A stretch of 64,000 nucleotides of DNA, from the NCBI GenBank assembly GCA_014685065.1, contig GCA_014685065.1_4092.2; one strand, 5' to 3'. Position numbers and translations under genes: made by a program. Positions 42,985-61,280 of the stretch are shown here, in pieces (the stretch's first letter is position 1; each line of letters starts with the position of its first letter). The DNA is from a phage. The notes below the pieces were generated by a model that had not been told where the DNA came from, did no database searches, and saw nothing but the letters and a program-made list of their open reading frames with translations.

Positions 42985-43347
42985 ATGGCGACTCAAATCA
43001 ATACTATCATGCTTAACCTGGTTTCTTTCCGTGAAGAGATGAAAGATCTTCCCGCTGAGACTGTACGGATTCACATTGCAGCTTATCGGGAATTGATTGC
43101 AATGCTGCCGCTTAAGCGTGAACAGTACGCCGCTACTGCAATGCTGGACGCAATGATACATAAGATGATCCAGACTGATTTAACGATGGCTTATCAGTAC
43201 ATGGGCGAAATGTTTGCAGTGTATAGCAAGCCAGTACCAGGAATGGAAAGTACAGAAGTATTGCACGGCTTAAACTTAAAACAAGATGCATGGGATAATA
43301 TGCCTCGTTTCCTGGTATGGGCTGACAGCGGCAAGATTTACGAATAA
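42985..43347 (+). CDS. hypothetical protein
   Basis: first gene of GC-richer block; RBS AAGAG. Confidence 0.55.
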   Translation: MATQINTIMLNLVSFREEMKDLPAETVRIHIAAYRELIAMLPLKREQYAATAMLDAMIHKMIQTDLTMAYQYMGEMFAVYSKPVPGMESTEVLHGLNLKQDAWDNMPRFLVWADSGKIYE

Positions 43348-43361
43348 GTTTAATAAAGTAC

Positions 43362-43420
43362 TTGCAAACTAAGTTTAAAAGCGTATAATGTTTTACATCA
43401 GGTGGGGAATAGTTCCCCAC
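43362..43420 (+). promoter_or_regulatory. PeSL-like module: TTGCAA-16-TATAAT + stem-loop GTGGGGAATAGTTCCCCAC
   Basis: TTGCAA 43362-43367, TATAAT 43384-43389, hairpin 43402-43420. Confidence 0.65.
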
Positions 43421-43440
43421 TATATAAGAGGATTAAAAAA

Positions 43441-43680
43441 ATGGCTAAATCAAAAATGTTCTTAGGTCACAAAAACAAAACTCAATGGAATGTAAGCCTT
43501 TGGATTAATAACGACGAATCATTATACCGGTTGGCCCAGGACTTTATTGCCGCTAACACTAATCGTAATGATGCGGCCCGTCATATGATGCTATTTTTAG
43601 AACAGACTGGACAAGATAAAACACCGGACGGCTTTAAGTATAGCACTACTGCGATCCGTGCGGCGATGGTTGGAATGTAA
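43441..43680 (+). CDS. hypothetical protein
   Basis: ATG 43441 after GAGGA; track start upstream lies in the hairpin. Confidence 0.55.
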   Translation: MAKSKMFLGHKNKTQWNVSLWINNDESLYRLAQDFIAANTNRNDAARHMMLFLEQTGQDKTPDGFKYSTTAIRAAMVGM

Positions 43681-43762
43681 GAGAATAGATTAAAAGTACT
43701 ATTGCACGGTGATAGTACTTTATAATAGATTTCTTTTATACAACAACGATAGGGGTAACAGC

Positions 43763-44029
43763 ATGAATATTATATACTTTGCAACGCGTGAACTTGCTCG
43801 GATTGCCGCACGCCAGGACGGGGCGACGTTTAAAGATATGGGCGTACAATCTGAACGTGGTAAACGTTGGGCCGTAGTAAAGCAAAGTACAGCCCGATCA
43901 ATTCAGTACTGGCTATCTGCTTTAAAGCGTCCTGATAGTGTATCGCGTCGCGTGGTAGAAATAAAGCACGACCGCAAGGGCAACCGCGTTACTGTGTACA
44001 GTACTAAAAAGATTGCAGTACTTGAATAA
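43763..44029 (+). CDS. hypothetical protein, paralog of 55734 gene
   Basis: FATRELARIAARQDGATFKDMG ... HDRKGNRVTVYS shared with 55734..56129. Confidence 0.55.
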   Translation: MNIIYFATRELARIAARQDGATFKDMGVQSERGKRWAVVKQSTARSIQYWLSALKRPDSVSRRVVEIKHDRKGNRVTVYSTKKIAVLE

Positions 44030-44151
44030 AAGTACTTGACAGTTATCCGGCTTAGTGAGATAATACTTACAAGCCGGACACAAGGCGATAGCCCATAGGG
44101 TGCGGGAGTGTATCTATAGGAAAGTACTAAAAACTATTTTCAAAAAAGTAC

Positions 44152-44179
44152 TTGCAAACTATGTTTAAAGGCGTATAAT
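44152..44179 (+). promoter_or_regulatory. promoter TTGCAA ... TATAAT, upstream of structured element
   Basis: agtacttgcaaactatgtttaaaggcgtataatg. Confidence 0.55.
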
Positions 44180-44180
44180 G

Positions 44181-44262
44181 TTTTACATCAGGACGGGGAA
44201 TGAAATAAGTAACTCCCTGTTAAGTAGTCCAGGAGTAAGACTTACGAAAAACTCCCCTGATA
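44181..44262 (+). ncRNA. structured RNA element, copy A (nested hairpins) between two promoters
   Basis: about 93 percent identical to 54513-54592; stem ACGGGGA/TCCCTGT has G-U where copy B has G-C. Confidence 0.35.
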
Positions 44263-44269
44263 AAATAGT

Positions 44270-44297
44270 TTGACAAAGATTTATAAAAGCGTATAAT
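44270..44297 (+). promoter_or_regulatory. promoter TTGACA-16-TATAAT
   Basis: tttgacaaagatttataaaagcgtataat. Confidence 0.55.
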
Positions 44298-44329
44298 ACT
44301 TACATCAACTAATGAATGAGGGTTACAAA

Positions 44330-44941
44330 ATGAAAACTATCACTACTACTACTTTTGTTATGGCTTTTTCTGAACTGAACGCAGAACAACAAACGGCGGC
44401 TATCGAACTGGTTCGGGATCGGGAACGTGCAAGTGAGGATAATTTCTTTGCTGAGTCAGTACTGGAATACTATAAAGAAACAGTACTGCCAGAATACGGC
44501 ATAGATGAAGCTGAATTGCAATACAGTGGTTTTTGGTCGCAAGGTGACGGTGCATCAATCAGTACTGACCACGTTGACGCTGAGAAGTTTTTACGCAAGG
44601 TTAAGGCGTTAACTAAGTATCGCACTATCCGTCACCTGTTGAACGAAGATGATTTAGAAATGAGTGTAGAACGTTCCCAATCGCGTTATGCACACGAAAA
44701 CACGGTAGGCGGTTGCGTTGATACTCGCTACACTGATTTAACTGTAAAACAGGCTGCATTAGCTGAGGATCTGGAAAACTTACTGACTGATACTATCCGA
44801 GAATTATCTTGTAAGCTGTACCGTGATTTAGAAAATGCTTATGAAGACCAGTTTACTACTGAAAACATTGTAGCACTGATTGAGGGTAACGAATATCAAT
44901 TTAATGTTATCGATGGTGTAGTAGAATCTATCGCATATTAA
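44330..44941 (+). CDS. hypothetical protein
   Basis: ATG 44330 after GAGGG. Confidence 0.55.
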   Translation: MKTITTTTFVMAFSELNAEQQTAAIELVRDRERASEDNFFAESVLEYYKETVLPEYGIDEAELQYSGFWSQGDGASISTDHVDAEKFLRKVKALTKYRTIRHLLNEDDLEMSVERSQSRYAHENTVGGCVDTRYTDLTVKQAALAEDLENLLTDTIRELSCKLYRDLENAYEDQFTTENIVALIEGNEYQFNVIDGVVESIAY

Positions 44942-44999
44942 TTCAGTACTGAATCACTGGCGGGGAATGGTTCCCGCCTATATCCCAGGAGTAAGAGAA

Positions 45000-45236
45000 A
45001 TGATCGAACAAATCAAAACTACAACGCCAAACGTAACGGGTACAGTATCACACTTCATTGGTGACGATTCGCGGGGCGTTCCTTATTGTGCAGTACATGT
45101 AAACCAAAATGGCGACTACTGGCTAACGGTTTACGGTTCTTATTCTTTCGGGCGTAGTGCACACCAAAAGATCCTGGATAAAGTACAGCCAACGGGTAAA
45201 AATATCACCGCTGAGATGTTTTATAAAAAGCACTAA
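45000..45236 (+). CDS. hypothetical protein
   Basis: ATG 45000 after AGGAG; preceded by hairpin GGCGGGGAATGGTTCCCGCC. Confidence 0.5.
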   Translation: MIEQIKTTTPNVTGTVSHFIGDDSRGVPYCAVHVNQNGDYWLTVYGSYSFGRSAHQKILDKVQPTGKNITAEMFYKKH

Positions 45237-45243
45237 AAAGTAC

Positions 45244-45302
45244 TTGCAAAGTAATTAGATTAACGTATAATACTTTATATCGAGAGCGGGAATAGTTCCC
45301 GC
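45244..45302 (+). promoter_or_regulatory. PeSL-like module
   Basis: TTGCAA 45244-45249, TATAAT 45266-45271, hairpin GCGGGAATAGTTCCCGC 45286-45302. Confidence 0.65.
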
Positions 45303-45321
45303 CTTTAATGAGGATTATCTA

Positions 45322-45606
45322 ATGAGCAAAGTAATTAATAGTAAAGTACTAACTAAAACTTTATCTATAACTGAGTGCACCGATGGTTTTTGGCTGTACG
45401 ATGAAACGCGTGGCATGAATTTAGCTATGCAGGAGAAAACTGCTGATGCGGCATATCTTAAAGCACTGGAATACTACCAGAAGCGTTTAAAGGAAGTAGA
45501 AAACGATTATAATAACCTGAAAGCGAAAGTAGATCATTTTGTCGGTCAATTCGTTGACGATGACGAGGACGGGCACTACTGCGACCGTTGCGGATCTTAC
45601 AATTGA
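45322..45606 (+). CDS. hypothetical protein
   Basis: RBS GAGGA; 94 aa. Confidence 0.55.
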   Translation: MSKVINSKVLTKTLSITECTDGFWLYDETRGMNLAMQEKTADAAYLKALEYYQKRLKEVENDYNNLKAKVDHFVGQFVDDDEDGHYCDRCGSYN

Positions 45607-45623
45607 GTACTGAGGATTATCTA

Positions 45624-45827
45624 ATGAGTGATTTAATTGAACGTATCAAAGAGCTTGAAGAAAAAGAATTGCAGTTGATCGGGTTACGGAATAAAGTATT
45701 CCATGATTTAGGTGGCTTCATTAATGCCTGGGATAGTGGCGATCCTGATGCGTTACCTGCTAACCGCCAGGCGATGATCAATGATGTGCGTGGTGTCTTT
45801 GATTATGTTTTAAAGCAATTAAATTAA
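45624..45827 (+). CDS. hypothetical protein
   Basis: ATG 45624 after GAGGA; leader duplicated from upstream gene. Confidence 0.5.
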   Translation: MSDLIERIKELEEKELQLIGLRNKVFHDLGGFINAWDSGDPDALPANRQAMINDVRGVFDYVLKQLN

Positions 45828-45834
45828 AAAAGTA

Positions 45835-45895
45835 CTTGCAATTAGTTTTTAGTACTGTATAATAGTTTACATCAAGGGGGGAAATGGTTCTCCCC
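45835..45895 (+). promoter_or_regulatory. PeSL-like module
   Basis: TTGCAA 45835-45840, TGTATAAT, hairpin GGGGGGAAATGGTTCTCCCC. Confidence 0.65.
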
Positions 45896-45914
45896 ACTAA
45901 TAAGGAGTTTTACA

Positions 45915-46136
45915 ATGGCTAATATCACTACTCTTTCCCAGCTTGAAGCACTGGTTAAATCTATGCGGGCACATGTTGACAGTATCGGCGTAGAAGATCC
46001 GGCTGTATGTTTTTGTGACGAAATAAATGATGATACGCTCGTCATTGCAGAAGTACAAGACGTTTCTAACTATTCATCGCGTTACACTTGCGGAGTATCA
46101 AAGAAAGGTGATTTCTGTTTATATCTTACTAAGTAA
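45915..46136 (+). CDS. hypothetical protein
   Basis: RBS AAGGAG. Confidence 0.55.
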   Translation: MANITTLSQLEALVKSMRAHVDSIGVEDPAVCFCDEINDDTLVIAEVQDVSNYSSRYTCGVSKKGDFCLYLTK

Positions 46137-46304
46137 TACAGAGGGGATCAATTGATCCCCTTTATATTTTTTGTACTGAATCATTTAATAGACGGATCTA
46201 TGCACCCTGTGGGTTAGTGACTATCTCGTCTTTATGTAAGTATTATGCCAGTACTGGATGCAGTTGTCAAGACTTTTTTTTCAAATACTTTTATATCAAA
46301 GTAC

Positions 46305-46360
46305 TTGATAATAGTTTTTAAATGCGTATAATGTTTTACATCTAATCGGGAATACTCCCT
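46305..46360 (+). promoter_or_regulatory. PeSL-like module (TTGATA ... TATAAT, weak hairpin)
   Basis: agtacttgataatagtttttaaatgcgtataatg. Confidence 0.5.
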
Positions 46361-46382
46361 AGTACTAACAAAGGATATACAA

Positions 46383-46682
46383 ATGAAAACTGCAATCATC
46401 GCCCTGGCTTTATCTGTTTCCTCTTTCGCTGTTAACGCTTCCGTTGATGTACCGAAAGAAAAATTCATTCAGTGCACTGTTGCAATGACTAACGAGGAAA
46501 CGGCTGAGATCGTTACCAAATCCCTGGAACTGGCCCCTGCAATGTTTGCTAATGGCCCGTACCATGAAGAAGATGATCAGGGTAGCACGACCATCTATTA
46601 CGATGCAAAAAGTAAACGCGGTTCTGTCACTGTAATGGATACAGAGAAAGTTACATTCACTGGCGTAATTAATTGTTTATAA
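46383..46682 (+). CDS. secreted hypothetical protein
   Basis: signal peptide MKTAIIALALSVSSFAVNA. Confidence 0.55.
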   Translation: MKTAIIALALSVSSFAVNASVDVPKEKFIQCTVAMTNEETAEIVTKSLELAPAMFANGPYHEEDDQGSTTIYYDAKSKRGSVTVMDTEKVTFTGVINCL

Positions 46683-46695
46683 TATAGTACTGAAT

Positions 46696-46728
46696 CACTA
46701 GCCCACTATAAGCAGTGGGCTTTTTTGT
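46696..46728 (+). terminator. intrinsic terminator
   Basis: AGCCCACT-ataagc-AGTGGGCT + T6. Confidence 0.7.
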
Positions 46729-46780
46729 TTTTGTAGTATTGTAGTACTGGTATACTTTGAAAATAGTTTTAAAAAAGTAG

Positions 46781-46808
46781 TTGACATTACCAGGGAAAAG
46801 CGTAGAAT
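46781..46808 (+). promoter_or_regulatory. promoter TTGACA ... TAGAAT
   Basis: agttgacattaccagggaaaagcgtagaatg. Confidence 0.5.
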
Positions 46809-46922
46809 GTATTACATCAAGACGGGGAACATTAAGTAGACCGCCAGTAAGTCGAATGAAAAACTGGACACGTCAATAAAACTTTGATAAACTAACTTAA
46901 ACTTTAATTGAGGATTTATAAA

Positions 46923-47405
46923 ATGGCTAATGTAAAATCATTTCTGAAAGCACTGATTTCTAACGATACTGTTATTGCTGCTGAATTGCTGGCTGACCTG
47001 GATAATGATACCATGAAAGCAGTACGCAACAATTTTAACATTGCTTACAGTGAAGCGAAAGAACTACAAGCCAAAAAGGTAGCAGAACTGGAAGAACAGA
47101 AAAAAGCCCGTGAAGCAGAACTGCAAGCAACAATAGAAAGTATTCAGGCGGCGGTGTCTGGTTTAGATCTGGAAGTGGTTATTGAAATGGCACATAAAGC
47201 CCTGGCGGTTAAGTACGGTGAAGATAAGCCGGAATCTAAGCCTAAAAAATGGATTCAAGAACGTGTTACGGTTGTCCTTGATAACGGGGAAGAACATTTG
47301 ATTCCTGTACGCGGTAACTGCATTGCGGTAGTACTAGATGCAATCAAAGAAAGCGGTATGACTCGCGAGGAATGGATCGAAGCTCACCGCAAAGTTGAAG
47401 CATAA
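46923..47405 (+). CDS. hypothetical protein with coiled-coil-like acidic/basic stretch
   Basis: ATG 46923 after GAGGA. Confidence 0.55.
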   Translation: MANVKSFLKALISNDTVIAAELLADLDNDTMKAVRNNFNIAYSEAKELQAKKVAELEEQKKAREAELQATIESIQAAVSGLDLEVVIEMAHKALAVKYGEDKPESKPKKWIQERVTVVLDNGEEHLIPVRGNCIAVVLDAIKESGMTREEWIEAHRKVEA

Positions 47406-47424
47406 CAATTAAAGTACTGAATCA

Positions 47425-47452
47425 CTAGCCCACTTATACAGTGGGCTTTTTT
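47425..47452 (+). terminator. intrinsic terminator
   Basis: AGCCCACT-tatac-AGTGGGCT + T6. Confidence 0.7.
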
Positions 47453-47606
47453 GTGTCTATAGTATTCCATGCCGTCAGCACCTCATAGAATCGATTCTAA
47501 CGCATTAAACTGATTATCTGATGCATCGCCCTAGCTGGTGGAGTTAAGGCCGTTAGAATGCGATTGAGAGTGTTAAAAGTATTTTACAAAAAGTAATAAA
47601 AAGTAC

Positions 47607-47634
47607 TTGCACGATTCAGAGATTAGCGTATAAT
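47607..47634 (+). promoter_or_regulatory. promoter TTGCAC ... TATAAT
   Basis: agtacttgcacgattcagagattagcgtataatg. Confidence 0.5.
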
Positions 47635-47679
47635 GTTTTACATCAAGGCGAAACACCTTAACTAACTGAGGATATAAAG

Positions 47680-47832
47680 ATGAATACTTATGAACTGGAT
47701 TGTTTCACTATGCAAGTAATGTTAGTATGCAGTAAAAAAGAATGGTCATCAAAGGAATTTAAAGCAGTTATTGCATGTTCAAAAAAAGGTAAGTCTATTA
47801 TTGAAACGGCAGCTATCGTAGATAGTCTTTAA
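47680..47832 (+). CDS. small hypothetical protein (50 aa)
   Basis: hand-called: RBS GAGGA, ATG 47680, stop 47830. Confidence 0.35.
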   Translation: MNTYELDCFTMQVMLVCSKKEWSSKEFKAVIACSKKGKSIIETAAIVDSL

Positions 47833-47840
47833 AAAATAGT

Positions 47841-47868
47841 TTGACAATAGTTTTAAGTACTGACATAA
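47841..47868 (+). promoter_or_regulatory. promoter TTGACA ... CATAAT
   Basis: tttgacaatagttttaagtactgacataat. Confidence 0.5.
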
Positions 47869-47902
47869 TACATACATCAACTACTGAATAGGAATCAAAA
47901 CA

Positions 47903-48130
47903 ATGGCTATCGTAATCACTCGCGTATCTGGTACTACTGGCAATTCTTCTACTGTTGCTGTAATTACTAATAAGAAAGGTGCGGAATTACATTTTGCAAT
48001 GAATACCTGGGCGGTGAATGAGTTCGGTCAGTGGGCTAGTGTAGAATACATTGAAACCTATCAAGTGCCAACCATTAGCTTAACGGATCTCGGCGTAGAT
48101 CGTATCTTATGCCTGGATGAATTAAACTAA
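47903..48130 (+). CDS. hypothetical protein
   Basis: RBS AGGAA. Confidence 0.5.
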   Translation: MAIVITRVSGTTGNSSTVAVITNKKGAELHFAMNTWAVNEFGQWASVEYIETYQVPTISLTDLGVDRILCLDELN

Positions 48131-48137
48131 AAAGTAC

Positions 48138-48197
48138 TTGCAAAGTAAATCGGATAAAGTATAATACATTACATCAAGGGGAGAAATGATTCTCCCC
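48138..48197 (+). promoter_or_regulatory. PeSL-like module
   Basis: TTGCAA 48138-48143, TATAAT 48160-48165, hairpin GGGGAGAAATGATTCTCCCC 48178-48197. Confidence 0.65.
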
Positions 48198-48215
48198 ACT
48201 AAGAGGAAACTAAAA

Positions 48216-48359
48216 ATGAAAACTTGTCAATGTGGTAAAAAATCTATCACTGGTTTGAAACGGGGCGTTGCTCTTTGTCAGTATCACTATAACGCTCAAG
48301 TATGGGGTAAAGAGTGGGCCGACCAGGTGGAAGCAATAAAGAAAGCAAAAAGTAAGTAA
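48216..48359 (+). CDS. small Cys-containing protein (47 aa), possible zinc ribbon
   Basis: hand-called: RBS AGAGGA, ATG 48216; CQCG ... C..H pattern. Confidence 0.35.
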   Translation: MKTCQCGKKSITGLKRGVALCQYHYNAQVWGKEWADQVEAIKKAKSK

Positions 48360-48443
48360 AATTATTATCACAGTACTATTGACATAGATTGATAGTACTG
48401 GCATAATAGATTTTATCAAGACAACTAAGAGGAAACAAAAATG
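48349..48443 (+). repeat. about 95-bp direct repeat, copy 1 (gene end + promoter + leader)
   Basis: near-identical to 48649-48737, including AGTACTATTGACATAG(A/T)TTGATAGTACTGGCATAAT. Confidence 0.6.
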
Positions 48444-48653
48444 GCTATCATTACAAAAATCAAAGTAAACAATTCACTGGTTAAACTGGAACAAGTGAAA
48501 GCGGGTTATAAAGTATCATGGTGCGGAATGTATCGGATGTTCGCAGATATTGACGATGCAATCAAATATTATACTGATACGGTTGCTAACTTTGTTCGTG
48601 CTGATGTAGTGATGGCAGTTGCACAACATAAAGCATCAAAGCAAAGTAAGTAA
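48441..48653 (+). CDS. hypothetical protein
   Basis: RBS AGAGGAAA. Confidence 0.55.
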   Translation: MAIITKIKVNNSLVKLEQVKAGYKVSWCGMYRMFADIDDAIKYYTDTVANFVRADVVMAVAQHKASKQSK

Positions 48654-48737
48654 AATTATTATCACAGTACTATTGACATAGTTTGATAGTACTGGCATAA
48701 TAGATTTTATCAAGACAACTAAGAGGAAATTAAAATG
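48649..48737 (+). repeat. about 95-bp direct repeat, copy 2
   Basis: see copy 1. Confidence 0.6.
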
Positions 48738-49079
48738 GCTAACATCAACACTATCTCAGCACAAAATATCAACCTGTCTTCTGTTGAAGTTGTACATATT
48801 GCCGCTCGGCGTTGGTTCCAGGCTTCATATGGTAACACTTATTTCTCTTTAAGTGTAGACGTAGAAATTGATGGTAATTTTATTGAAGTAGTAAACGTGC
48901 CGTTCCAATATGGATACGGGGATCACTTTGACACTGTAGCAATGGAAGAATTTAGCAAGGTTATTAATATGGAAGATAAAGAGTTTTTACGCGGTTCTTA
49001 TCTTTCCCGTTTTTGCCGTGACAATAATATCACTGTTTACAGTTCGGTAACTGATGTTAAACGCAAAAAAGATCTTTAA
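48735..49079 (+). CDS. hypothetical protein, paralog of 55311 gene
   Basis: shares GNTY(F/H)S ... YGYG ... VKRKKD(L/M) with 55311..55634. Confidence 0.55.
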   Translation: MANINTISAQNINLSSVEVVHIAARRWFQASYGNTYFSLSVDVEIDGNFIEVVNVPFQYGYGDHFDTVAMEEFSKVINMEDKEFLRGSYLSRFCRDNNITVYSSVTDVKRKKDL

Positions 49080-54858: not shown

Positions 54859-54867
54859 TAAAATAGT

Positions 54868-54926: not shown

Positions 54927-54947
54927 CTAACAAAGAGAGAAATTAAA

Positions 54948-55223: not shown

Positions 55224-55226
55224 GTA

Positions 55227-55286: not shown

Positions 55287-55310
55287 CCTAACTAAAAGAG
55301 AGAAATTAAA

Positions 55311-55634
55311 ATGACTATGATCCTTACCCAGAAAGTAGAAATGAAAATTGTAACTTCCTTTGACATTAAAGTTAATCGGTGGACTGATAGCCACGGCAAT
55401 ACTTACCACTCATGCTACGTGTCTGCATTGATTGGTGACCGCTGGGAAGACCTGGGACATGAAACCTTTACTTACGGTTACGGTACACAAGGCGAATACA
55501 CGGGCTTGGAGATCATTAAAGAAACTGTAATAGGTTTCAACCCGAAAGAGAAAGTACTACACAGAATTGAGGATGAGATCAACAAAGAAATTACAGTTCG
55601 TTACTACGATGTAAAACGTAAGAAAGACATGTAA
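55311..55634 (+). CDS. hypothetical protein, paralog of 48735 gene
   Basis: GNTYHS ... YGYG ... VKRKKDM. Confidence 0.55.
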   Translation: MTMILTQKVEMKIVTSFDIKVNRWTDSHGNTYHSCYVSALIGDRWEDLGHETFTYGYGTQGEYTGLEIIKETVIGFNPKEKVLHRIEDEINKEITVRYYDVKRKKDM

Positions 55635-55656
55635 TAGAATCCATTTAAAGTACTAT

Positions 55657-55685
55657 TTGACATTGCCCAGATAGTACTTTATAAT
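55657..55685 (+). promoter_or_regulatory. promoter TTGACA-17-TATAAT flanked by AGTACT
   Basis: agtactatttgacattgcccagatagtactttataat. Confidence 0.55.
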
Positions 55686-55733
55686 AGACTCTAACTTGTA
55701 GTACTAATTAACTTAACTAATAGGATGTACACC

Positions 55734-56129
55734 ATGATTACTAAATTCTTCGCTACCCGTGAACAAGCTCGCATCGTTGCTCGTGAAGAAGGTGAAACAT
55801 TTAAAGACATGGGCAAAGATGCACCGAAAGGACAACGCTGGGCGGTACAGTTCAAAGAGATCTCTGATATTGTGAATTCACCTGAGCCTGTACTTACTGA
55901 AGCAGAACTGAAGAAAGCTCAAGAACTGGCTGAAGTACTGAACGCTCAAGATGACTTCTTGGAAGGTTCTGATATTGAAGTTACAGTTAACGCAAATGCA
56001 TGGACTCACGCGGATCACCTGGCAAACCTTAAGCGTCCAAGTGAACTGATTCGTAACCAGAAAGAGATCCGTCATGACCGTAAAGGAAACCGTGTAACAG
56101 TATACAGTAAACGCCGCCAGGTTATCTAA
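55734..56129 (+). CDS. hypothetical protein, paralog of 43763 gene with insertion
   Basis: FATREQARIVAREEGETFKDMG ... RHDRKGNRVTVYS. Confidence 0.55.
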   Translation: MITKFFATREQARIVAREEGETFKDMGKDAPKGQRWAVQFKEISDIVNSPEPVLTEAELKKAQELAEVLNAQDDFLEGSDIEVTVNANAWTHADHLANLKRPSELIRNQKEIRHDRKGNRVTVYSKRRQVI

Positions 56130-56150
56130 TAACTTTGCAGTACTAACAAC

Positions 56151-56176
56151 ACGGCGGGAATAGTTCCCGCCTTTTT
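56151..56176 (+). terminator. intrinsic terminator
   Basis: GGCGGGAATAGTTCCCGCC + T6. Confidence 0.7.
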
Positions 56177-56192
56177 TATAGGATAAACTAAA

Positions 56193-56447
56193 ATGATGAA
56201 GGTACAACTATCTAAAGATAATATCTTGCGGGTACACTATAAAGCACCACAGAGAATCATCACAAAGGCCGTACAGCTTGCTAATGAGTTTATTAATGGT
56301 AGTCTATTACCCAGGAAGTTAAGCAACGGGAAACTACGTGTTATCGATGTAGACACTAACAATAGAATAGTAATTGAGAGTACTGGAAAAATTAATCTAT
56401 ATGAACACCAACAATACAATAAAAAAATAAAACTAATATCACGTTGA
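56193..56447 (+). CDS. hypothetical protein
   Basis: RBS AGGA. Confidence 0.5.
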   Translation: MMKVQLSKDNILRVHYKAPQRIITKAVQLANEFINGSLLPRKLSNGKLRVIDVDTNNRIVIESTGKINLYEHQQYNKKIKLISR

Positions 56448-56471
56448 CAGTACTCAATTGTTTTAGTATTA
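56444..56471 (+). promoter_or_regulatory. promoter TTGACAGTACTCAA ... TATTAT (homologous to 56722)
   Basis: two genes with unrelated products share this promoter/leader. Confidence 0.5.
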
Positions 56472-56503
56472 TGTATCTATACCAACACAGAGAGAGAAAC
56501 AAA

Positions 56504-56722
56504 ATGAAATTATCTAAAATCGAAAAGAAAACTATTGATGAAGCAGTGAAGCACGGTTATACCTTTCGTAATGATTCACACTTCACCAGTTTTCAACAGG
56601 GAAACCGTACCATCAAAAAACTCATTGATAAAGGTTTACTCACTAAGGTTGATAACGGGAACGGTGTAGAATATCAACCGACAGAAGACGCATTATCACT
56701 AAAGAAATATTCTATTATCTAA
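56504..56722 (+). CDS. hypothetical protein
   Basis: ATG 56504 after AGAGAGA; track N-terminus is a leader read-through. Confidence 0.5.
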   Translation: MKLSKIEKKTIDEAVKHGYTFRNDSHFTSFQQGNRTIKKLIDKGLLTKVDNGNGVEYQPTEDALSLKKYSII

Positions 56723-56750
56723 TTGACAGTACTCAAATGTTTTAGTACTA
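56722..56750 (+). promoter_or_regulatory. promoter TTGACAGTACTCAA ... TACTAT
   Basis: homologous to 56444. Confidence 0.5.
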
Positions 56751-56779
56751 TGTACGCATACCAACACGGGGAAAACAAA

Positions 56780-57022
56780 ATGATTACTTTAGAAAAACGT
56801 ATCAAAGAGACTACAACGCTGGTGGAACTGTTAACCGTTCTTAAATGCCGGGTAACTCCATTCAGTACACCGGACTTTATCAACATGGTGGACGTTAACG
56901 GTCGCTATCGTATTGCGGTCGAACAAGGTACGGCAAAAGTATTCAGTACTAAAAATACGCGTGAAGTATTCCACGCAGTAAGTACGAAAAAAGTAGTTGC
57001 CATTGATAGTAAAGTACTGTAA
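56780..57022 (+). CDS. hypothetical protein
   Basis: ATG 56780 after GGGGAAAA. Confidence 0.5.
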   Translation: MITLEKRIKETTTLVELLTVLKCRVTPFSTPDFINMVDVNGRYRIAVEQGTAKVFSTKNTREVFHAVSTKKVVAIDSKVL

Positions 57023-57053
57023 TATAGTTTCATTAACTCAAGGAGTCAACACA

Positions 57054-57638
57054 ATGCGTAACTATACTAAATTCATCCGTTCACTTCATGCAATGGAAAC
57101 CAACAAAGAGATCCTTTCAGCTTGTCGGTTAGCTGGACTGGAGATCGTCGGTGCGGGTTCTTCCCGTATTGTATTCGCTTTAAATGATCGGTTAGTGATT
57201 AAGGTCGCGAATTGTGATGCGGGTGTAGAACAAAATGAAACTGAATGTAAGGTATGGAATTTTTTAGATTATGACCGTCCGCACCTTAAACAGTTCTTTG
57301 CCAAGGTGCATATGCATTTATGCGATCCTGATAATCTGTTTATTGTTATGGATCGTTTGAGTACTGCAAGCAAAGGCAGTGTAAAGCACGTAACCGCATG
57401 TAATGAGTTAAAGTACAATATTAAACGTAACACTATTGAACGCCATCACCATTTCGCTGATGCTCTCAATCACGTTGATGATACATTATCCACACTAACG
57501 ATAAGAGATATCAGAAAACAGAATATCGGCCAGGATCGCAACGGCTTGATTAAAGTACTTGATTACGGTTTAACCCGCAATATCTGGAATCAGTACTATA
57601 AAAAACGTGATGTTAACGCGATAACTATAACACGATAA
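57054..57638 (+). CDS. protein-kinase-like protein (atypical Ser/Thr-kinase fold)
   Basis: Gly-loop VGAGSSRIVF, VIKVA, catalytic-loop-like IRDIRKQNIG, DFG-like VLDYG; ATG 57054 after AAGGAG. Confidence 0.55.
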   Translation: MRNYTKFIRSLHAMETNKEILSACRLAGLEIVGAGSSRIVFALNDRLVIKVANCDAGVEQNETECKVWNFLDYDRPHLKQFFAKVHMHLCDPDNLFIVMDRLSTASKGSVKHVTACNELKYNIKRNTIERHHHFADALNHVDDTLSTLTIRDIRKQNIGQDRNGLIKVLDYGLTRNIWNQYYKKRDVNAITITR

Positions 57639-57652
57639 AAAAGATTAAAAAA

Positions 57653-57685
57653 GGGATTGACTCCAGTCAGTCCCTTTGCTATTAT
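57653..57685 (+). terminator. bifunctional terminator/promoter module
   Basis: GGGATTGACTCCAGTCAGTCCC + TTTGCTATTAT. Confidence 0.65.
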
Positions 57686-57779
57686 ATATTCATTGAGAGA
57701 TAACTCACTGACCCATAGGGTGCGGAAGTGTATCTATTATATAAGTATTCAGTACTGAAAACTATTTGATAAAAAGTAC

Positions 57780-57840
57780 TTGCAAACTATCTTAATGAGC
57801 GTATAATGTTTTATATCGAGAGGGGGAAATGGTTCTCCCT
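57780..57840 (+). promoter_or_regulatory. PeSL-like module
   Basis: TTGCAA 57780-57785, TATAAT 57802-57807, hairpin AGGGGGAAATGGTTCTCCCT. Confidence 0.65.
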
Positions 57841-57862
57841 GGTACTAAAAGGAATCAAAACG

Positions 57863-58084
57863 ATGGCTACTATGACCTGCGTTCACGCTTCAAATCTTCT
57901 GAATGATGCAGCATTTAAAGCAGGTGAAGAATATCAATGCTATCGGGATGAAAATAAAAAAGTTTTCGTCGTTGATGCTAACGGTTTCCATATTGAATTG
58001 CAATCCGGCTTCACTGGTTTAAATGGTAAATCAGTATGGGGCGTTAATGATGATAATGGTCTTTATCACTTTATCCGTAATTAA
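57863..58084 (+). CDS. hypothetical protein
   Basis: ATG 57863 after AAGGAA. Confidence 0.5.
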   Translation: MATMTCVHASNLLNDAAFKAGEEYQCYRDENKKVFVVDANGFHIELQSGFTGLNGKSVWGVNDDNGLYHFIRN

Positions 58085-58087
58085 GTA

Positions 58088-58146
58088 TTGACAAAGTATA
58101 TCAGTACTGTATAATAGTTTACATCAAGGGGAGAATAGTTCTCCCC
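58088..58146 (+). promoter_or_regulatory. PeSL-like module
   Basis: TTGACA 58088-58093, TATAAT 58110-58115, hairpin GGGGAGAATAGTTCTCCCC. Confidence 0.65.
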
Positions 58147-58168
58147 ACCAATAAAAGGAAACAAAATT

Positions 58169-58441
58169 ATGTCTAGCTACTCCGCTACTATGATCATTAA
58201 AGATATGAACGGTAATCCTACTTCTGCTGGTGGATCATTTGGAAACATTAACTTAGATGGTCGGTTATCAATTGAATCAGCCATCAATGCAGCGAAAGAA
58301 GTTTTTAAGAATGAATGCACTGTAAGTAAGCTGGATTATATGGGATTCGCTATCGAGAAAACTAATCGTTTTGTGAACTACAAAAATCCACTGATGATTG
58401 ATACTAACCTGAAAGCTAACGAAGTGGAATACTTATTATGA
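58169..58441 (+). CDS. hypothetical protein
   Basis: RBS AAAGGAAA. Confidence 0.55.
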   Translation: MSSYSATMIIKDMNGNPTSAGGSFGNINLDGRLSIESAINAAKEVFKNECTVSKLDYMGFAIEKTNRFVNYKNPLMIDTNLKANEVEYLL

Positions 58442-58629
58442 CAGTTGAAGAAGTTAAAAAAGTACTGGCAGTACTACGCTATCATAATCATTGTAAGGTG
58501 AAGAATGATCCTGATTATGTTGATTCATCCCTGGAGGAAGACACCTTAAACGCGATAAGCTATATGCAAACATTAGCAAAGCGTATGACCGAAAAGAATA
58601 GGCCGGACTATATCGGAAATAAAATTTAA
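58438..58629 (+). CDS. hypothetical protein
   Basis: ATGA overlap with upstream gene. Confidence 0.5.
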   Translation: MTVEEVKKVLAVLRYHNHCKVKNDPDYVDSSLEEDTLNAISYMQTLAKRMTEKNRPDYIGNKI

Positions 58630-58635
58630 AAAGTA

Positions 58636-58698
58636 CTTGCATTGTAGTTAGATTAACGTATAATGTTTTATATCGAGAGGGGGAAATGGTTTCCCCTC
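58636..58698 (+). promoter_or_regulatory. PeSL-like module
   Basis: TTGCAT, TATAAT 58659-58664, hairpin GAGGGGGAAATGGTTTCCCCTC. Confidence 0.65.
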
Positions 58699-58716
58699 AA
58701 GTCCAGGAGATACACC

Positions 58717-58980
58717 ATGAACACTATCGAAATCACTATCAATGCACACGTATACGACAACGTAGTACTGCAAACTACTATGACCGCTAATGATACCAGT
58801 ACTTTGCGGAATATCGTTATTAGTTCAGTATGTGCCGCTATCGGTGATGTTGCCCTTGAAAATGCAAAACACGTCAACGATGCCTTTACGATGTGCAAAC
58901 GTGATAACTCAAAACATATCATCTGCGAAGGTTACGGCGGTGTAGAATACAATGTTTATATGAAAAAAGTACTTGCATAA
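58717..58980 (+). CDS. hypothetical protein
   Basis: ATG 58717 after AGGAG; last codons overlap next promoter. Confidence 0.5.
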   Translation: MNTIEITINAHVYDNVVLQTTMTANDTSTLRNIVISSVCAAIGDVALENAKHVNDAFTMCKRDNSKHIICEGYGGVEYNVYMKKVLA

Positions 58981-59029
58981 TAACTAAAACAAAGTATAAT
59001 GTTTTGCATAGGGGGAGATATCCTCCCCC
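58973..59029 (+). promoter_or_regulatory. PeSL-like module
   Basis: TTGCAT 58973-58978, TATAAT 58995-59000, hairpin GGGGGAGATATCCTCCCCC. Confidence 0.65.
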
Positions 59030-59048
59030 ACTAATAAGGAGTACTAAA

Positions 59049-59273
59049 ATGGCTAACTTTGATGAACTGATGCGGGAAGTAGCTACCCTGGCAGAAGAGA
59101 AGAAATCATTCGATTCTATATATAACACCGCTTACAGTGATTCAGTACTGGCATGTACTCAGGATCAAAAAGATGAACTGATCGCCACCTATCATGAAGC
59201 ATGGAAGTATTACCGCCAATGGGAGAAAGAAGAAAGCGAGTCTACCATCAACGGCATCAATAATCTAATCTAA
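59049..59273 (+). CDS. hypothetical protein
   Basis: ATG 59049 after AAGGAG. Confidence 0.5.
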   Translation: MANFDELMREVATLAEEKKSFDSIYNTAYSDSVLACTQDQKDELIATYHEAWKYYRQWEKEESESTINGINNLI

Positions 59274-59291
59274 AGTTTTATTTCAGTACTA

Positions 59292-59320
59292 TTGACAATG
59301 CGTGATAGTACTGATGTGAT
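59292..59320 (+). promoter_or_regulatory. promoter-like TTGACA flanked by AGTACT
   Basis: agtactattgacaatgcgtgatagtactgatgtgataac. Confidence 0.4.
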
Positions 59321-59347
59321 AACTTTACTAACTAAAGGGGAAACATA

Positions 59348-59605
59348 ATGGAACAGTTCACACAATATCGGGTAAATCCTCAAGCTATGGCCTACGTAGA
59401 AGACCATAAAACGTTACCAGTACTAACACCAATTAAAGGCCATATCTATCGTGCTATGCAGTGGAATAACGCCTATAATGGCTATAAAGCGGTATCCGCT
59501 GCAATGTACTTAGGGGATGGCGAATGGTTTGATCCAAATAATCCTGGTGCACTCGATAGTACTGAAAAAATGACATGGGCCGACTATATCGAAGATATCT
59601 CATAA
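59348..59605 (+). CDS. hypothetical protein
   Basis: RBS AAGGGGAAA. Confidence 0.5.
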   Translation: MEQFTQYRVNPQAMAYVEDHKTLPVLTPIKGHIYRAMQWNNAYNGYKAVSAAMYLGDGEWFDPNNPGALDSTEKMTWADYIEDIS

Positions 59606-59612
59606 AAACTAT

Positions 59613-59673
59613 TTGACAGTACTACAAGATAATGTATAATGTTTTACATAGAGCGGGGGAATAGTTCTCCCGC
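59613..59673 (+). promoter_or_regulatory. PeSL-like module
   Basis: TTGACA 59613-59618, TATAAT 59635-59640, hairpin GCGGGGGAATAGTTCTCCCGC. Confidence 0.65.
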
Positions 59674-59693
59674 ACCTTTAGGAGTAAAACATT

Positions 59694-59894
59694 ATGTCAA
59701 TCGCTAACGAATTGGTTGCAGTACTGAATGAAGCAAAAGCCAACTGCATCGATGTACAGATAAAAGAGCTTGGCAATGGCTTGATCGGCTGTACTTGTTC
59801 CGTGCAAACGGCTACCGATTATCGGGAAGTGGAATCACTCGAATCACTGGTACGGTATATTAAAATCCTGGTAGAAGATTGGAGAATCATCTAA
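59694..59894 (+). CDS. hypothetical protein
   Basis: RBS AGGAG. Confidence 0.5.
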   Translation: MSIANELVAVLNEAKANCIDVQIKELGNGLIGCTCSVQTATDYREVESLESLVRYIKILVEDWRII

Positions 59895-59913
59895 CAAAAA
59901 AGAATAAAAAAAA

Positions 59914-59946
59914 GGGATTGACTCCGGTCAGTCCCTTTGCTATTAT
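59914..59946 (+). terminator. bifunctional terminator/promoter module
   Basis: AAAGGGATTGACTCCGGTCAGTCCCTTTGCTATTAT. Confidence 0.65.
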
Positions 59947-60069
59947 ATACGCATAGACAAAAACTAGCCCACAGGGTGCAGAGAAGTATCTGTAAGATAG
60001 TTAATAACGGTGAGTAACTATCTGCTGGTGGATGTAATTCCAGTACTCAAAACTATTTCAAAAAAAGTA

Positions 60070-60099
60070 TTGACAAAGTATATCAGTACTGCGATAATG
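60070..60099 (+). promoter_or_regulatory. promoter TTGACA ... GCGATAAT
   Basis: tattgacaaagtatatcagtactgcgataat. Confidence 0.5.
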
Positions 60100-60151
60100 T
60101 ATCTCGTAGGGCGGCGATGGTGCGACGGCCCACAAAGTTAGGAGATTCAAA

Positions 60152-60478
60152 ATGAGTACTTCAATCGCTATCGTTAAAGCTTTCATCCGTACCAATTTCG
60201 ACCGCATTACTGTTGATGGTAATGATCGGGAAGTAGAATACTCTTTCATTGTTGCACAAACCGCAAACGGTGCACGCTATATCTTAAACGATAGTGAAGC
60301 TAACCACTACTTCTATAATAAAGGATTACACTACATCCCTAGCGAAGTAGTCTACAGTAAGATGAATAAGCTGGTAGACAAGATTAACGCAAAGGGTACT
60401 ATAGATTTACAGTACTGGACCGAAACAGATCCAGAATACGGCTCGTATCGTTACCTGAATCCAGGAATTAAAATGTAA
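60152..60478 (+). CDS. hypothetical protein
   Basis: RBS AGGAGA. Confidence 0.55.
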   Translation: MSTSIAIVKAFIRTNFDRITVDGNDREVEYSFIVAQTANGARYILNDSEANHYFYNKGLHYIPSEVVYSKMNKLVDKINAKGTIDLQYWTETDPEYGSYRYLNPGIKM

Positions 60479-60484
60479 AAAGTA

Positions 60485-60546
60485 CTTGCATAGTACTTAG
60501 AATCAAGTATAATGTTTTACATAGAGAGGGGGAAATGGTTCTCCCT
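60485..60546 (+). promoter_or_regulatory. PeSL-like module
   Basis: TTGCAT 60485-60490, TATAAT 60508-60513, hairpin GAGGGGGAAATGGTTCTCCCTC. Confidence 0.65.
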
Positions 60547-60567
60547 CCTACATTAAGGAGTTTTATC

Positions 60568-60969
60568 ATGACTTTCTCAATCACTTCCTTTGCTGACGTT
60601 TTAGTACTGGCTCGGACTTTTGGTAAAGATGCACTGGAGTACGCTGTAAGTAATGGCACTCTCCAACCGGAACAATGCCGCATCATTGGAAACTGTAAAC
60701 GTTGGGCGGTATCCAATACTATTGCACTAGAAAACTTCAACGATGGTAACAATGAGTATTCAGTTGATGCAGTATTCGAAGCCGTTGATCTTGGCGGTAT
60801 CTATAACACTAACCTAAATGATGTGCGTATCGTTCGCACGGGGTTCGGTGCTTATGATGTATCTATCCGTGAAGCTATGAACACCGGATACATTAGTAAG
60901 GACTTACTTGCTCACATCATGCAGCTATGGACGGAACGTAACGAAGCACGCACTATCTTAGGACTATAA
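60568..60969 (+). CDS. hypothetical protein
   Basis: ATG 60568 after AAGGAG. Confidence 0.55.
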   Translation: MTFSITSFADVLVLARTFGKDALEYAVSNGTLQPEQCRIIGNCKRWAVSNTIALENFNDGNNEYSVDAVFEAVDLGGIYNTNLNDVRIVRTGFGAYDVSIREAMNTGYISKDLLAHIMQLWTERNEARTILGL

Positions 60970-60993
60970 GCATTACACATCACCAAACATCAT

Positions 60994-61013
60994 AGGCCGC
61001 TCTCTAGCGGCCT
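60994..61013 (+). terminator. terminator-like hairpin AGGCCGCT-ctct-AGCGGCCT
   Basis: 8-bp GC-rich stem; weak T tract. Confidence 0.4.
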
Positions 61014-61037
61014 TAACTATATCAGGAGGGCATACAT

Positions 61038-61247
61038 ATGTTCTATACAGTATACAGCGTTCTAGGTACTATTGCTGGCGTACATGATAACGTCAGTGAT
61101 GCTATGCGTACAGTACTGCAACAGGTTCCACTAAAGCCTAAGACTGTTAAGCAGATGACAGCACGACTAACCAGGGCGACGGATGGCGTGGAAGTATGGC
61201 AGGACTACGGGGATACACAGATAATCGTTAGCGTAACGAAGGATTAA
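61038..61247 (+). CDS. hypothetical protein
   Basis: RBS AGGAGGG. Confidence 0.5.
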   Translation: MFYTVYSVLGTIAGVHDNVSDAMRTVLQQVPLKPKTVKQMTARLTRATDGVEVWQDYGDTQIIVSVTKD

Positions 61248-61280
61248 TGCGTAAAGGGATCTAGTACTGATTCAGAAAAA

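Follow-up and report, generated by a model that had tools for sequence, protein, structure and literature searches.

A compositionally distinct block in a jumbo coliphage genome is very probably a 20-kb direct terminal repeat made of small early-type gene cassettes

Introduction

Phage genomes can contain segments that differ sharply in composition from the sequence around them, and such a block is present in the 64,000-nucleotide stretch of phage DNA analysed here (contig GCA_014685065.1_4092.2 of assembly GCA_014685065.1, referred to as the window). An initial annotation, made from the sequence alone, had described the block as a segment richer in G and C between two AT-rich regions, and had proposed that it is either of different evolutionary origin or a different expression class. 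The question raised by this locus is therefore what the block is and where its composition comes from. We find that it is very probably a direct terminal repeat (DTR) of ~20.1 kb that carries an immediate-early, host-takeover-type gene set built of near-autonomous cassettes, and that its composition probably derives from a pool of shared cassettes together with regulatory DNA.

Results

The block corresponds to the terminal repeat of Asteriusvirus jumbo coliphages

A megablast search against a phage collection assigned the window to the jumbo coliphages of the Asteriusvirus group (PBECO4, 121Q, G17, fEgEco12, vB_Ec-M-J and JP4). Alignment to fEgEco12 brought its position 1 to window position 41305 with the first 71/71 nucleotides identical, and position 1 of vB_Ec-M-J aligned to the same nucleotide. 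The last position of the fEgEco12 repeat (20,993) aligned to window position 61399, and the junction at this right edge, GGGCGGGTAACCT followed directly by TAGCGACTTCG, was identical in the window, fEgEco12 and vB_Ec-M-J. The segment between the two edges (61399 - 41305 + 1) is 20,095 bp long, which is within the ~20-21.5 kb expected for an Asteriusvirus DTR. The left start first given for the block, 42985, turned out to be the first open reading frame (ORF) only; the block begins at about 41305 and includes a 1.7-kb non-coding left part, and several independent records start ~1.7 kb upstream of the first ORF.

The record of vB_Ec-M-J labels the homologous segment (1..21525, 21,525 bp) 'Direct Terminal Repeats' and contains a second copy at its right end, and we verified that both copies are identical. 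The fEgEco12 repeat of 20,993 bp was found by PhageTerm and backed by restriction digests (PMC13070987), the DTR of Sharanji was placed at 20,668 bp by PhageTerm (PMC11895373), G17 has a repeat of ~20 kb as judged from read coverage (PMC6563267) and the terminal repeat of CBB is 22,456 bp (PMC5259590). On its left side, the block adjoins genes that match those preceding the right-hand vB_Ec-M-J copy, the unique right end; on its right side, the adjoining genes match those that follow the left-hand copy, the unique left-end array. Because of this flank synteny and the terminus alignments with vB_Ec-M-J and fEgEco12, we read the window as one collapsed repeat copy joined to both unique ends. By homology to these relatives, the virion of this phage would carry the repeat at both genome ends. 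In the JP4 record (PQ330092.1, 138409-165870) two repeat copies were found head-to-tail in mid-record, resembling a concatemer junction, and the deposited coordinates do not begin at the physical genome end.

Composition and edges of the block

Sliding-window GC, codon usage and tetranucleotide profiles, the checks that the initial annotation had proposed, all separated the block from its flanks. GC content was 0.381 in the block (42985-61250) as compared to 0.342 at 1-25.2 kb, 0.356 at 25.2-37.1 kb, 0.336 at 37.1-41.1 kb and 0.348 at 61.25-64 kb, and in 500-nt windows the mean was 0.381 inside and 0.345 outside (Mann-Whitney p = 6e-9). This gap of ~3.6 points is modest and the codon and oligonucleotide contrasts were much stronger. 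Using simple gene calls, the codons said to be favoured in the block were indeed commoner there, at 7.8 per 1000 in the block vs 0.4 in the rest for CGG (~20-fold), 9.6 vs 2.7 for GCG and 13.7 vs 4.4 for GGC, with CTG at 21.1 vs 7.8, and usage over the 61 codons differed with a chi-square p of ~2e-105. Host-preferred CTG, GGC, CGC, CCG and GCG were raised and AGA was lowered. Relative synonymous codon usage (RSCU) in the block correlated with that of E. coli (r = 0.41; other regions -0.28 to 0.07), and the median of a host-usage index was 0.658 vs 0.54-0.61 elsewhere (p = 6e-10). GC at third codon positions (GC3) was 0.362 in the block and 0.374 and 0.356 in the adjacent arrays.

The contrast extended to oligonucleotides and to non-coding DNA. 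The observed/expected ratio of CpG was 1.03 inside the block and 0.64-0.79 outside, and GATC, CCGG, GGCC and CGCG were near expectation inside and depleted outside. Coding density was 67-72% in the block vs ~87% in region A (1-25 kb) and region B (the segment that follows, to 37.1 kb). Intergenic GC was 0.356 vs 0.33-0.35 elsewhere, with the intergenic DNA of the block including G-rich hairpins. These hairpins, of a GAA-loop-TTC type, were found at ~24 loci, all within 42263-60528. The word GTACTTGCA occurred in 15 copies on the plus strand of the block and 0 on the plus strand elsewhere, with one minus-strand copy in region B, and GGGGAGAA occurred in 6 + 8 copies in the block vs 0 + 2 elsewhere, which bears out the remark that -35-type motifs and stem-loops of this kind are rare outside the block. 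The small-gene arrays on either side (families C and E, see below) were without the block signature: CGG was 0 per 1000 in them and their host-usage index differed from that of the block (p = 8e-9).

The same edges were approached from composition. On the first principal component of tetranucleotide frequencies, 5/5 block chunks tested (41305-58054) scored +4.2 to +6.0 and 13/13 other chunks scored at most +0.94, and among all contiguous placements the tetranucleotide contrast peaked with the block placed at 41305. Unsupervised trinucleotide segmentation with two boundaries returned 41901-61500; its score hardly changed for a left boundary anywhere between 41.1 and 42.1 kb and the right edge was sharp, in agreement with the abrupt switch described near 61.3 kb. 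The inverted repeat noted at this switch is real. It has 13-bp arms, and the 153 nt around it fold with a z of -3.0, with 0/200 shuffles folding as well. It is kept in fEgEco12, has A-runs and T-runs on its flanks and ends 58 nt inside the right edge of the DTR at 61399. It is a probable bidirectional terminator that closes the early unit.

Promoters and leader hairpins form repeated cassettes

The block was scanned for promoters with a strict rule (TTGACA or TTGCAA, a 16-18 nt spacer and TATAAT, with at most 1 mismatch in total). This gave 37 near-consensus sigma-70 promoters on the plus strand (Table 1), and a second, independent scan agreed. Plus-strand promoter density was 1.84 per kb in the DTR as compared to 0.6 at 1-25.2 kb, 0 at 25.2-37.1 kb, 0.48 at 37.1-41.3 kb and 0.38 at 61.4-64 kb. 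The DTRs of vB_Ec-M-J, fEgEco12 and JP4 have 36-40 promoters each. An A-rich tract and AGTAC were usually found upstream of the DTR promoters. The suggestion that the block is a different expression class is thus well supported at the level of sequence, with ~1 near-consensus promoter per gene (37 in 20 kb) vs almost none inside the flanking arrays, and early timing would follow by inference.

Behind 24/37 promoters a leader hairpin was predicted (minimum free energy <= -9 kcal/mol within 40 nt), mostly with a small loop and an 8-bp G-rich stem. A full cassette, such as that at 48138..48215, consists of aaaaagtacTTGCAA, a 16-nt spacer and TATAAT, then acattacatcaa, the GGGGAGAAatgaTTCTCCCC hairpin and actaAGAGGaaactaaaaATG. 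Since the stem begins 12-13 nt past the -10 element, the hairpin is predicted to lie inside the transcript, near its 5' end. The covariation analysis covered 45 distinct hairpins taken from 4 phages. Positions 1-8 of the stem were paired in 96.7% of cases vs 83% with shuffled partners (maximum 86.7%), G-C alternated with A-T or C-G at positions 4, 6, 7 and 8, and positions 1-7 contained 16 G.T wobbles and 0 A.C. The covariation and the strand-specific wobble pairs point to a structure in the plus-strand RNA. The copy at 56153-56171 has TTTTTT directly behind it and was scored as a terminator. The hairpins most likely attenuate read-through from the upstream cassette, as was shown for the promoter early stem-loop (PeSL) elements of T4-type phages, and/or protect the mRNA 5' end.

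Within the window, hairpin-bearing cassettes were found in the DTR only, except for one promoter at 16192. A second cassette type, in which the -35 element is embedded in a terminator stem (AAAGGGTTGACTtcggTCAGCCCTTT), was found in both the DTR and region A. Outside the DTR such terminator-promoter composites lie at 7349-7383, 10593-10625, 10775-10807, 12383-12406, 17961-17990, 19243-19272 and 20657-20686. The region A composite has the form AAAGG(G)TTGACTtcggTCAGCC(C)TTTTT-TATAAT with the -35 hexamer as part of the terminator stem, and corresponds to the PeSL sub-class with a stem-loop overlapping the -35.

The repeat is a mosaic that shares cassettes with other phage lineages

In every Asteriusvirus examined the DTR occupied one and the same position, and its boundaries and overall gene order agreed. 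Between 19 and 35 kb the flank was 99.5% identical to G17 and Sharanji, whereas the best match to the block, JP4, covered 92% of it at 89% identity and G17 covered 47% at 89%. Given the contrast between the flank and this partial alignment, the block varies more than any other part of a genome that is conserved elsewhere.

BLAST of the block against other phages bore out the idea of a different origin in part. Gene-sized pieces of the DTR, at 81-91% identity, had counterparts in phages of Vequintavirinae, Phapecoctavirus, Justusliebigvirus and Dompiswa, but the block as a whole corresponds to the Asteriusvirus DTR and is not foreign. W70, a member of Vequintavirinae, has at least 9 homologous genes, rearranged and preceded by what is essentially the same promoter-hairpin cassette, and muut (Justusliebigvirus) has four homologous genes behind this cassette, also rearranged. 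The DTR genes and their W70 and muut homologues were 70-90% identical in nucleotide sequence. The shared part of W70 has a GC of 0.384 and a CpG observed/expected ratio of 1.05 in a genome with a backbone GC of 0.431, and the small-gene array of muut has a GC of 0.40, as compared to 0.381 for the DTR here and 0.345 for its backbone. Because GC is alike in the three phages despite differing backbones, the cassettes appear to bring their own composition into the resident genome. Comparison with three relatives placed 16/29 distinct synteny breakpoints in cassettes vs 4.7 expected, the cassettes making up 16% of the DTR (p = 2e-6).

Genes in the repeat and in the flanking arrays

The ORFs of the block are all on the plus strand, most of their starts are preceded by an AGGAG/GAGG-type Shine-Dalgarno sequence, their PHROGs matches were almost all to families of unknown function, and Pfam recognised domains in just a handful of them. 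Hints of host takeover came from a DksA/TraR-type zinc finger, a GNAT-family acetyltransferase, a ParE-like domain and a weak kinase-like match (Table 1). The DksA/TraR-type protein carries the same annotation in its homologues in relatives and is a candidate modulator of host RNA polymerase. For the kinase-like ORF, fEgEco12 and the Turkey3/Turkey5 phages have a homologue that carries a Ser/Thr kinase annotation. Searches for structured RNAs gave no tRNA genes in the window by tRNA scan and no Rfam match over the window at gathering thresholds; at permissive settings, Rfam returned just two matches in the DTR, both sub-threshold and at chance level (Trp leader and snoRNA sR46).

Both flanking arrays consist of translationally coupled genes with overlapping start and stop codons, each array behind a sigma-70-type promoter. 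The proteins of family C, to the left, end in ...LIY[RK]Y and gave 13 within-family BLASTP pairs; family E, to the right, gave 24 within-family pairs and 0 with family C, showing that the arrays are unrelated. The family E array continues for ~35 genes in vB_Ec-M-J. Internal near-consensus promoters numbered 2 in array C and 1 in array E. Further to the left, the long minus-strand genes at 25465-34752 are annotated in relatives as regulator-of-chromosome-condensation (RCC1) repeat proteins, and near-identical terminator hairpins, GCCAGTACnnnGTACTGGC, which contain GTAC/AGTACT, lie between these RCC1-type genes.

Table 1. Features of the terminal repeat and its flanks (window coordinates).
Feature	Coordinates	Strand	Description
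Direct terminal repeat (predicted by homology)	41305..61399	+	20,095 bp; the compositionally distinct block; single collapsed copy; homologous to known DTRs
Non-coding left-terminal part of the DTR	41305..42984	.	no credible ORF; promoters on both strands; 15 AGTACT sites; GGCTAGATGG/GGCTGGATGG-type words
Near-consensus sigma-70 promoters	41679..60513	+	37, strict scan
-35 starts of these promoters	41679, 42900, 43362, 44036, 44152, 44270, 45244, 45836, 46305, 46781, 47607, 47841, 48138, 48379, 48673, 49850, 50447, 50882, 51154, 51468, 51992, 52583, 53000, 53622, 54482, 54600, 54868, 55227, 55657, 56444, 57780, 58088, 58637, 58973, 59613, 60070, 60486	+	
Full cassette, example	48138..48215	+	promoter, hairpin and following elements as given in the text
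ORF array	42985..61247	+	~50 small ORFs, median ~75 amino acids; all on + by ORF calls
DUF7249 ORF	43441..43680	+	Pfam above cut-off; common to many Vequintavirinae, Phapecoctavirus and Justusliebigvirus phages at 71-86% nucleotide identity
DksA/TraR-type C4 zinc-finger protein	52319..52576	+	85 amino acids; PF01258, E = 1.5e-11, 44.5 bits vs cut-off 24.9
GNAT-family N-acetyltransferase	52640..52996	+	118 amino acids; PF00583, E = 7e-10, 39.6 bits vs cut-off 20.7
DUF7247 ORF	53292..53615	+	33.6 bits vs cut-off 27
ParE-like toxin domain ORF	56193..56447	+	84 amino acids; PF24732, E = 3e-10, 40.4 bits vs cut-off 24.4
Weak protein-kinase-like ORF	57054..57638	+	194 amino acids; PF07714 and PF00069, both below cut-offs (19.7 and 17.9 bits)
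Promoter + CCC-N3-GGGTGC units, sister copies	50307-50392, 54346-54426, 57650-57735, 59911-59991	+	composite terminator with embedded promoter; no ORF
Related promoter + CCC-N3-GGGTGC units	44036-44115, 51992-52072	+	no ORF
Related promoter + CCC-N3-GGGTGC units	42336-42444, 42551-42659, 46179-46270	-	no ORF
Inverted repeat AAAAAAGTCAAGG ... CCTTGACTTTTTT	61276..61341	.	13-bp arms 61276-61288 and 61329-61341; 40-nt interior with inner hairpin
Left flank, family C array	37129..41041	+	perfect sigma-70 promoter (37129), then ~15 tandem paralogous genes of ~60 amino acids (genes 37181-41041); unique right genome end
Right flank, family E array	61438..63872	+	promoter TTGACT-16-TAAAAT (61438-61465), then tandem paralogues of ~70 amino acids with motif GTNYQ (genes 61497-63872)

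Non-coding elements of the repeat

The non-coding left-terminal part of the DTR is 91% identical to the left end of vB_Ec-M-J. It contains a run of GGCTAGATGG/GGCTGGATGG/GACGGCTAAA words at 42040-42230. Short tandem repeats lie by the left terminus (41156-41243 and 41369-41402), with GTAATCA-type repeats and GTAGTGATCA x2.7 immediately outside it and, immediately inside, ATCAAAAGTA x3.4. These tandem repeats and words could be packaging, replication or protein-binding sites.

The CCC-N3-GGGTGC motif of the promoter units listed in Table 1 is invariant and lies 25-35 nt past a sigma-70 promoter, always in promoter orientation (9/9 units). There are 9 such units in this DTR, 9-12 in the fetched locus of each relative and 0 in the muut locus. 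RNAalifold, applied to the nine units in search of a small-RNA fold, gave only a 4-bp hairpin and no covariation. A different non-coding unit of ~75 nt, with its own promoter and a second promoter directly after it, occurs at 44180-44272 and 54510-54602 within the 139-nt duplicates 44138-44276 and 54468-54606. Its sequence barely varies among vB_Ec-M-J, fEgEco12, JP4, W70 and muut, which represent three lineages, and is more conserved than the adjoining genes. Its predicted fold has three helices with only one compensatory pair and no Rfam match, and we regard it as a candidate small RNA.

GCGC is absent and AGTACT is enriched

Two oligonucleotide anomalies were observed across the window. GCGC occurred 0 times vs 64.5 expected, and was likewise absent (0 vs ~134 expected) from ~109 kb of vB_Ec-M-J, fEgEco12 and JP4. 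This avoidance is absolute and includes the terminal repeat, where the milder avoidance of CpG, GATC, CCGG, GGCC and CGCG is missing, and the W70 homologues do contain GCGC. Phage phAPEC6 is said to encode a C5-cytosine methyltransferase. The palindrome AGTACT occurred 264 times in the window vs 21.6 expected and was 12-20-fold over-represented, in coding DNA (each of the three codon phases) and in non-coding DNA alike, reaching 11.4 per kb in the intergenic DNA of the repeat. It is densest at 36-62 kb; many -35 and -10 elements have a copy immediately upstream, and terminator stems contain it too. There were 0 copies in 61400-64000, and the first 2-2.8 kb of the right-hand array was without any in 4/4 phages. 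At one homologous promoter-upstream position, a single case, the window has AGTACT (51462) where W70 has AGCGCT (4945). C-to-T transitions on each strand of the central CpG would turn GCGC into GTAC, a word that is 2.6-5-fold over-represented here; with one case at hand this route is a lead.

Discussion

Source of the composition

The composition of the block calls for an explanation, and exchange of shared genes is the best-supported one. In this explanation, which we hold tentatively, a common pool of early-gene cassettes (promoter, leader hairpin and small ORF) circulates among unrelated E. coli myovirus lineages, Asteriusvirus, Vequintavirinae and Stephanstirmvirinae at least, via recombination at the cassette, with the DTR as docking bay; the cassettes would keep their own GC of ~38-40% and show no avoidance of CpG or palindromes, and the jumbo phage would impose only its no-GCGC rule. 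The proposal of a different evolutionary origin survives in this form, for single cassettes that are 70-90% identical, reordered and of the same GC in Vequintavirinae and Justusliebigvirus, but fails for the block as a whole. Had the block been taken in as one foreign island from a host, prophage, plasmid or other phage and not yet adapted, its distinct, host-nearer composition (RSCU r = 0.41 vs -0.28 to 0.07), its near-expected CpG, GATC, CCGG, GGCC and CGCG next to a depleted flank and its partial matches to other phage genera would be understandable. Such an island is nonetheless highly improbable, as the block holds the same position, boundaries and outline gene order in every Asteriusvirus examined, obeys the rules of the genome around it (GCGC 0 vs 26 expected, AGTACT ~19-fold enriched) and shares with other genera gene-sized, shuffled pieces instead of a block. 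It is neither absent in the relatives examined nor does it bear integration hallmarks, the features by which genomic islands are recognised: the window has no tRNA gene, and no integrase or recombinase was among the Pfam matches. A megablast search of 5,426 complete E. coli genomes gave 0 matches, and recent capture from an E. coli host or prophage was excluded at that sensitivity. Hardly any weight falls on an artefact of small genes or of an arbitrary window choice. The raw GC gap is only ~3.6 points and the adjacent arrays are also made of small genes, but segmentation recovered the block with no prior information, the tetranucleotide contrast was largest exactly at the DTR placement and those arrays lacked the signature.

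Two further explanations invoke processes acting on resident sequence. Translational selection alone, with immediate-early genes drifting to host codons and horizontal exchange being incidental, would account for the higher host-usage index and for the rise of CTG, GGC, CGC, CCG and GCG and the fall of AGA, and it is favoured by a phage tRNA set of only Ser, Met, Asn and Thr. We consider it unlikely, though a serious contender. The most enriched codon, CGG, is a rare codon in E. coli; CpG, GATC and 4-base palindromes are normal across the whole block, one third of which is non-coding; the GC3 of the block is not above that of the adjacent arrays; the GC of these genes is no different in a phage with a 43% GC backbone; and region A combines host-type promoters with backbone-like codons. 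The phage tRNAs themselves were rejected as the cause of the codon shift, as the shifted codons are those for Arg, Ala, Gly, Leu and Pro. GC-biased gene conversion, between DTR copies that recombine in each infection cycle during circularisation or in concatemers, is suggested by the block being the repeat and by GC and CpG both being raised inside it. It is very unlikely, as intergenic GC is barely raised even with the G-rich hairpins included, GC3 is not above that of the adjoining arrays and the same composition occurs in W70 and muut cassettes, whose loci are not established as long terminal repeats. We know of no demonstration of biased gene conversion in phages. The authors of the fEgEco12 study do propose that the terminal repeats recombine on entry (PMC13070987).

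Proposed mechanism

In the model that we favour each cassette starts with an A-rich tract and continues with a host sigma-70 promoter close to consensus, in most cases a G-rich hairpin with an 8-bp stem, a strong Shine-Dalgarno sequence and an ORF. With about one promoter per gene in a terminal repeat, every gene would be readable by host RNA polymerase once either DNA end enters the cell, and the large inverted-repeat terminator would end the early unit immediately ahead of the unique sequence. For later gene classes the phage would rely on a sigma factor of its own; the Asteriusvirus genus is reported to encode one, which fits a cascade with only the first class on sigma-70. The authors of the CBB study suspected that RpoD-like promoters define an early region which extends into the terminal repeat (PMC5259590). 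The repeat genes would be expressed early and may act in host shut-off. The composition would then have two sources, namely an early-gene pool that is exchanged by recombination at the promoter-hairpin cassette and keeps a GC of ~38-40%, CpG at expectation and codons nearer to those of E. coli, and the one third of the block that is regulatory DNA rich in G-runs. Recombination at cassettes as the mechanism of exchange is deduced from the shuffled gene order and breakpoints.

Several points weigh against this reading. The terminal duplication is deduced from homology, the virion data being those of relatives, and promoter strength, timing and start sites are predictions. Most leader hairpins are without a U-tract, leaving the terminator role as a candidate, and a stem ~5-7 nt into the predicted transcript is farther from the 5' end than classic 5' stabilisers. 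Region A has 15 good sigma-70 promoters and yet a backbone-like composition, and because of this early-type promoters alone do not explain the composition of the block. The RSCU correlation and the host-usage index both depend on an E. coli codon table that was entered by hand. The breakpoint test is weakened by BLAST ends that run into conserved cassettes and by three relatives that are not independent, and the argument that cassettes have their own composition draws on two outside lineages, with the backbone measured for W70 only.

Significance

For genome scanning, these findings mean that a sharp compositional block in a large lytic phage can mark a collapsed terminal repeat and early module and not a foreign island. 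The ~20-kb repeats of jumbo coliphages have so far been reported only as a packaging feature. The present analysis yields ~37 predicted strong early promoters with defined starts, a 5' hairpin and ~50 candidate host-takeover proteins, and suggests that phage families exchange early genes in ready-to-express form. This is relevant to the mining of early genes for antibacterial targets and anti-defence functions and to the engineering of therapeutic jumbo phages. If true, the cassette-pool explanation would widen the PeSL concept from T4-type phages to a network of exchange across families, and composition would become a marker of a mobile early-gene pool.

Comparison with known systems

The closest known systems are the DTRs of Asteriusvirus and Rak2-like phages, which resemble the repeat described here in homologous sequence, outline gene order, length and the edge sequences of fEgEco12 and vB_Ec-M-J. 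They differ in a mosaic gene content, with 47-92% of this DTR aligning per relative at ~89%. The repeat of the genus has been published; for its promoters, hairpins, composition, AGTACT enrichment and GCGC avoidance we found no report in the open-access literature, subscription papers being outside the search. Phage T5 offers a further likeness, in that its ~10-kb DTR carries the pre-early genes, which are transferred in a first step and are the first to be expressed by host RNA polymerase. T5-like repeats are 10-11 kb (PMC6563267). Of the two-step DNA injection of T5 there is no sign in the present sequence.

The best-studied analogue is SPO1's host-takeover module, a set of mostly small early genes in the terminal region of a large lytic myovirus genome, with promoters and ribosome-binding sites typical of high expression (PMC6873191). 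Numerous small genes in a terminal redundancy, strong promoters of host-sigma type and strong Shine-Dalgarno sequences are common to both at the sequence level. SPO1 infects a Gram-positive host and its module has 26 genes in ~12 kb arranged in operons, in contrast to ~50 genes in 20 kb with ~1 promoter per gene here, and early expression and host shut-off were shown by experiment for SPO1 and are deduced here. The Pfam and PHROGs matches gave no sign of homology to SPO1 gp37-60, no direct comparison having been made, and the likeness is one of analogy.

The cassettes themselves are best compared to the PeSLs of T4-type phages, which consist of an AT-rich tract, a sigma-70 early promoter and a 'generally GGGG...CCCC' stem-loop followed by a Shine-Dalgarno sequence and start codon (PMC2839356, PMC4122927). 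PeSLs lie between small ORFs of unknown function in the most variable regions, where indels and replacements are bounded by the cassette, and their promoter activity, terminator activity and mini-circles were shown by experiment (PMC2839356, PMC4122927). The cassette anatomy seen here, known from sequence, agrees with this published composite definition. Here too the cassettes occupy the least conserved segment, the DTR, among small ORFs of unknown function, breakpoints fall in cassettes (16/29) and gene order is shuffled in W70 and muut, and 2/5 of the published stem-loop positions were seen (downstream of the -10 and overlapping the -35). We call the cassettes PeSL-like and not PeSLs because the genome is of Asteriusvirus type and not of T4 type (Tevenvirinae-like). 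Unlike PeSLs, they belong to another phage family, place the stem-loop inside the predicted transcript (~12-13 nt after the -10) and fill a terminal repeat instead of internal hyperplastic regions, and they recur, together with their genes, in near-identical form across phage subfamilies.

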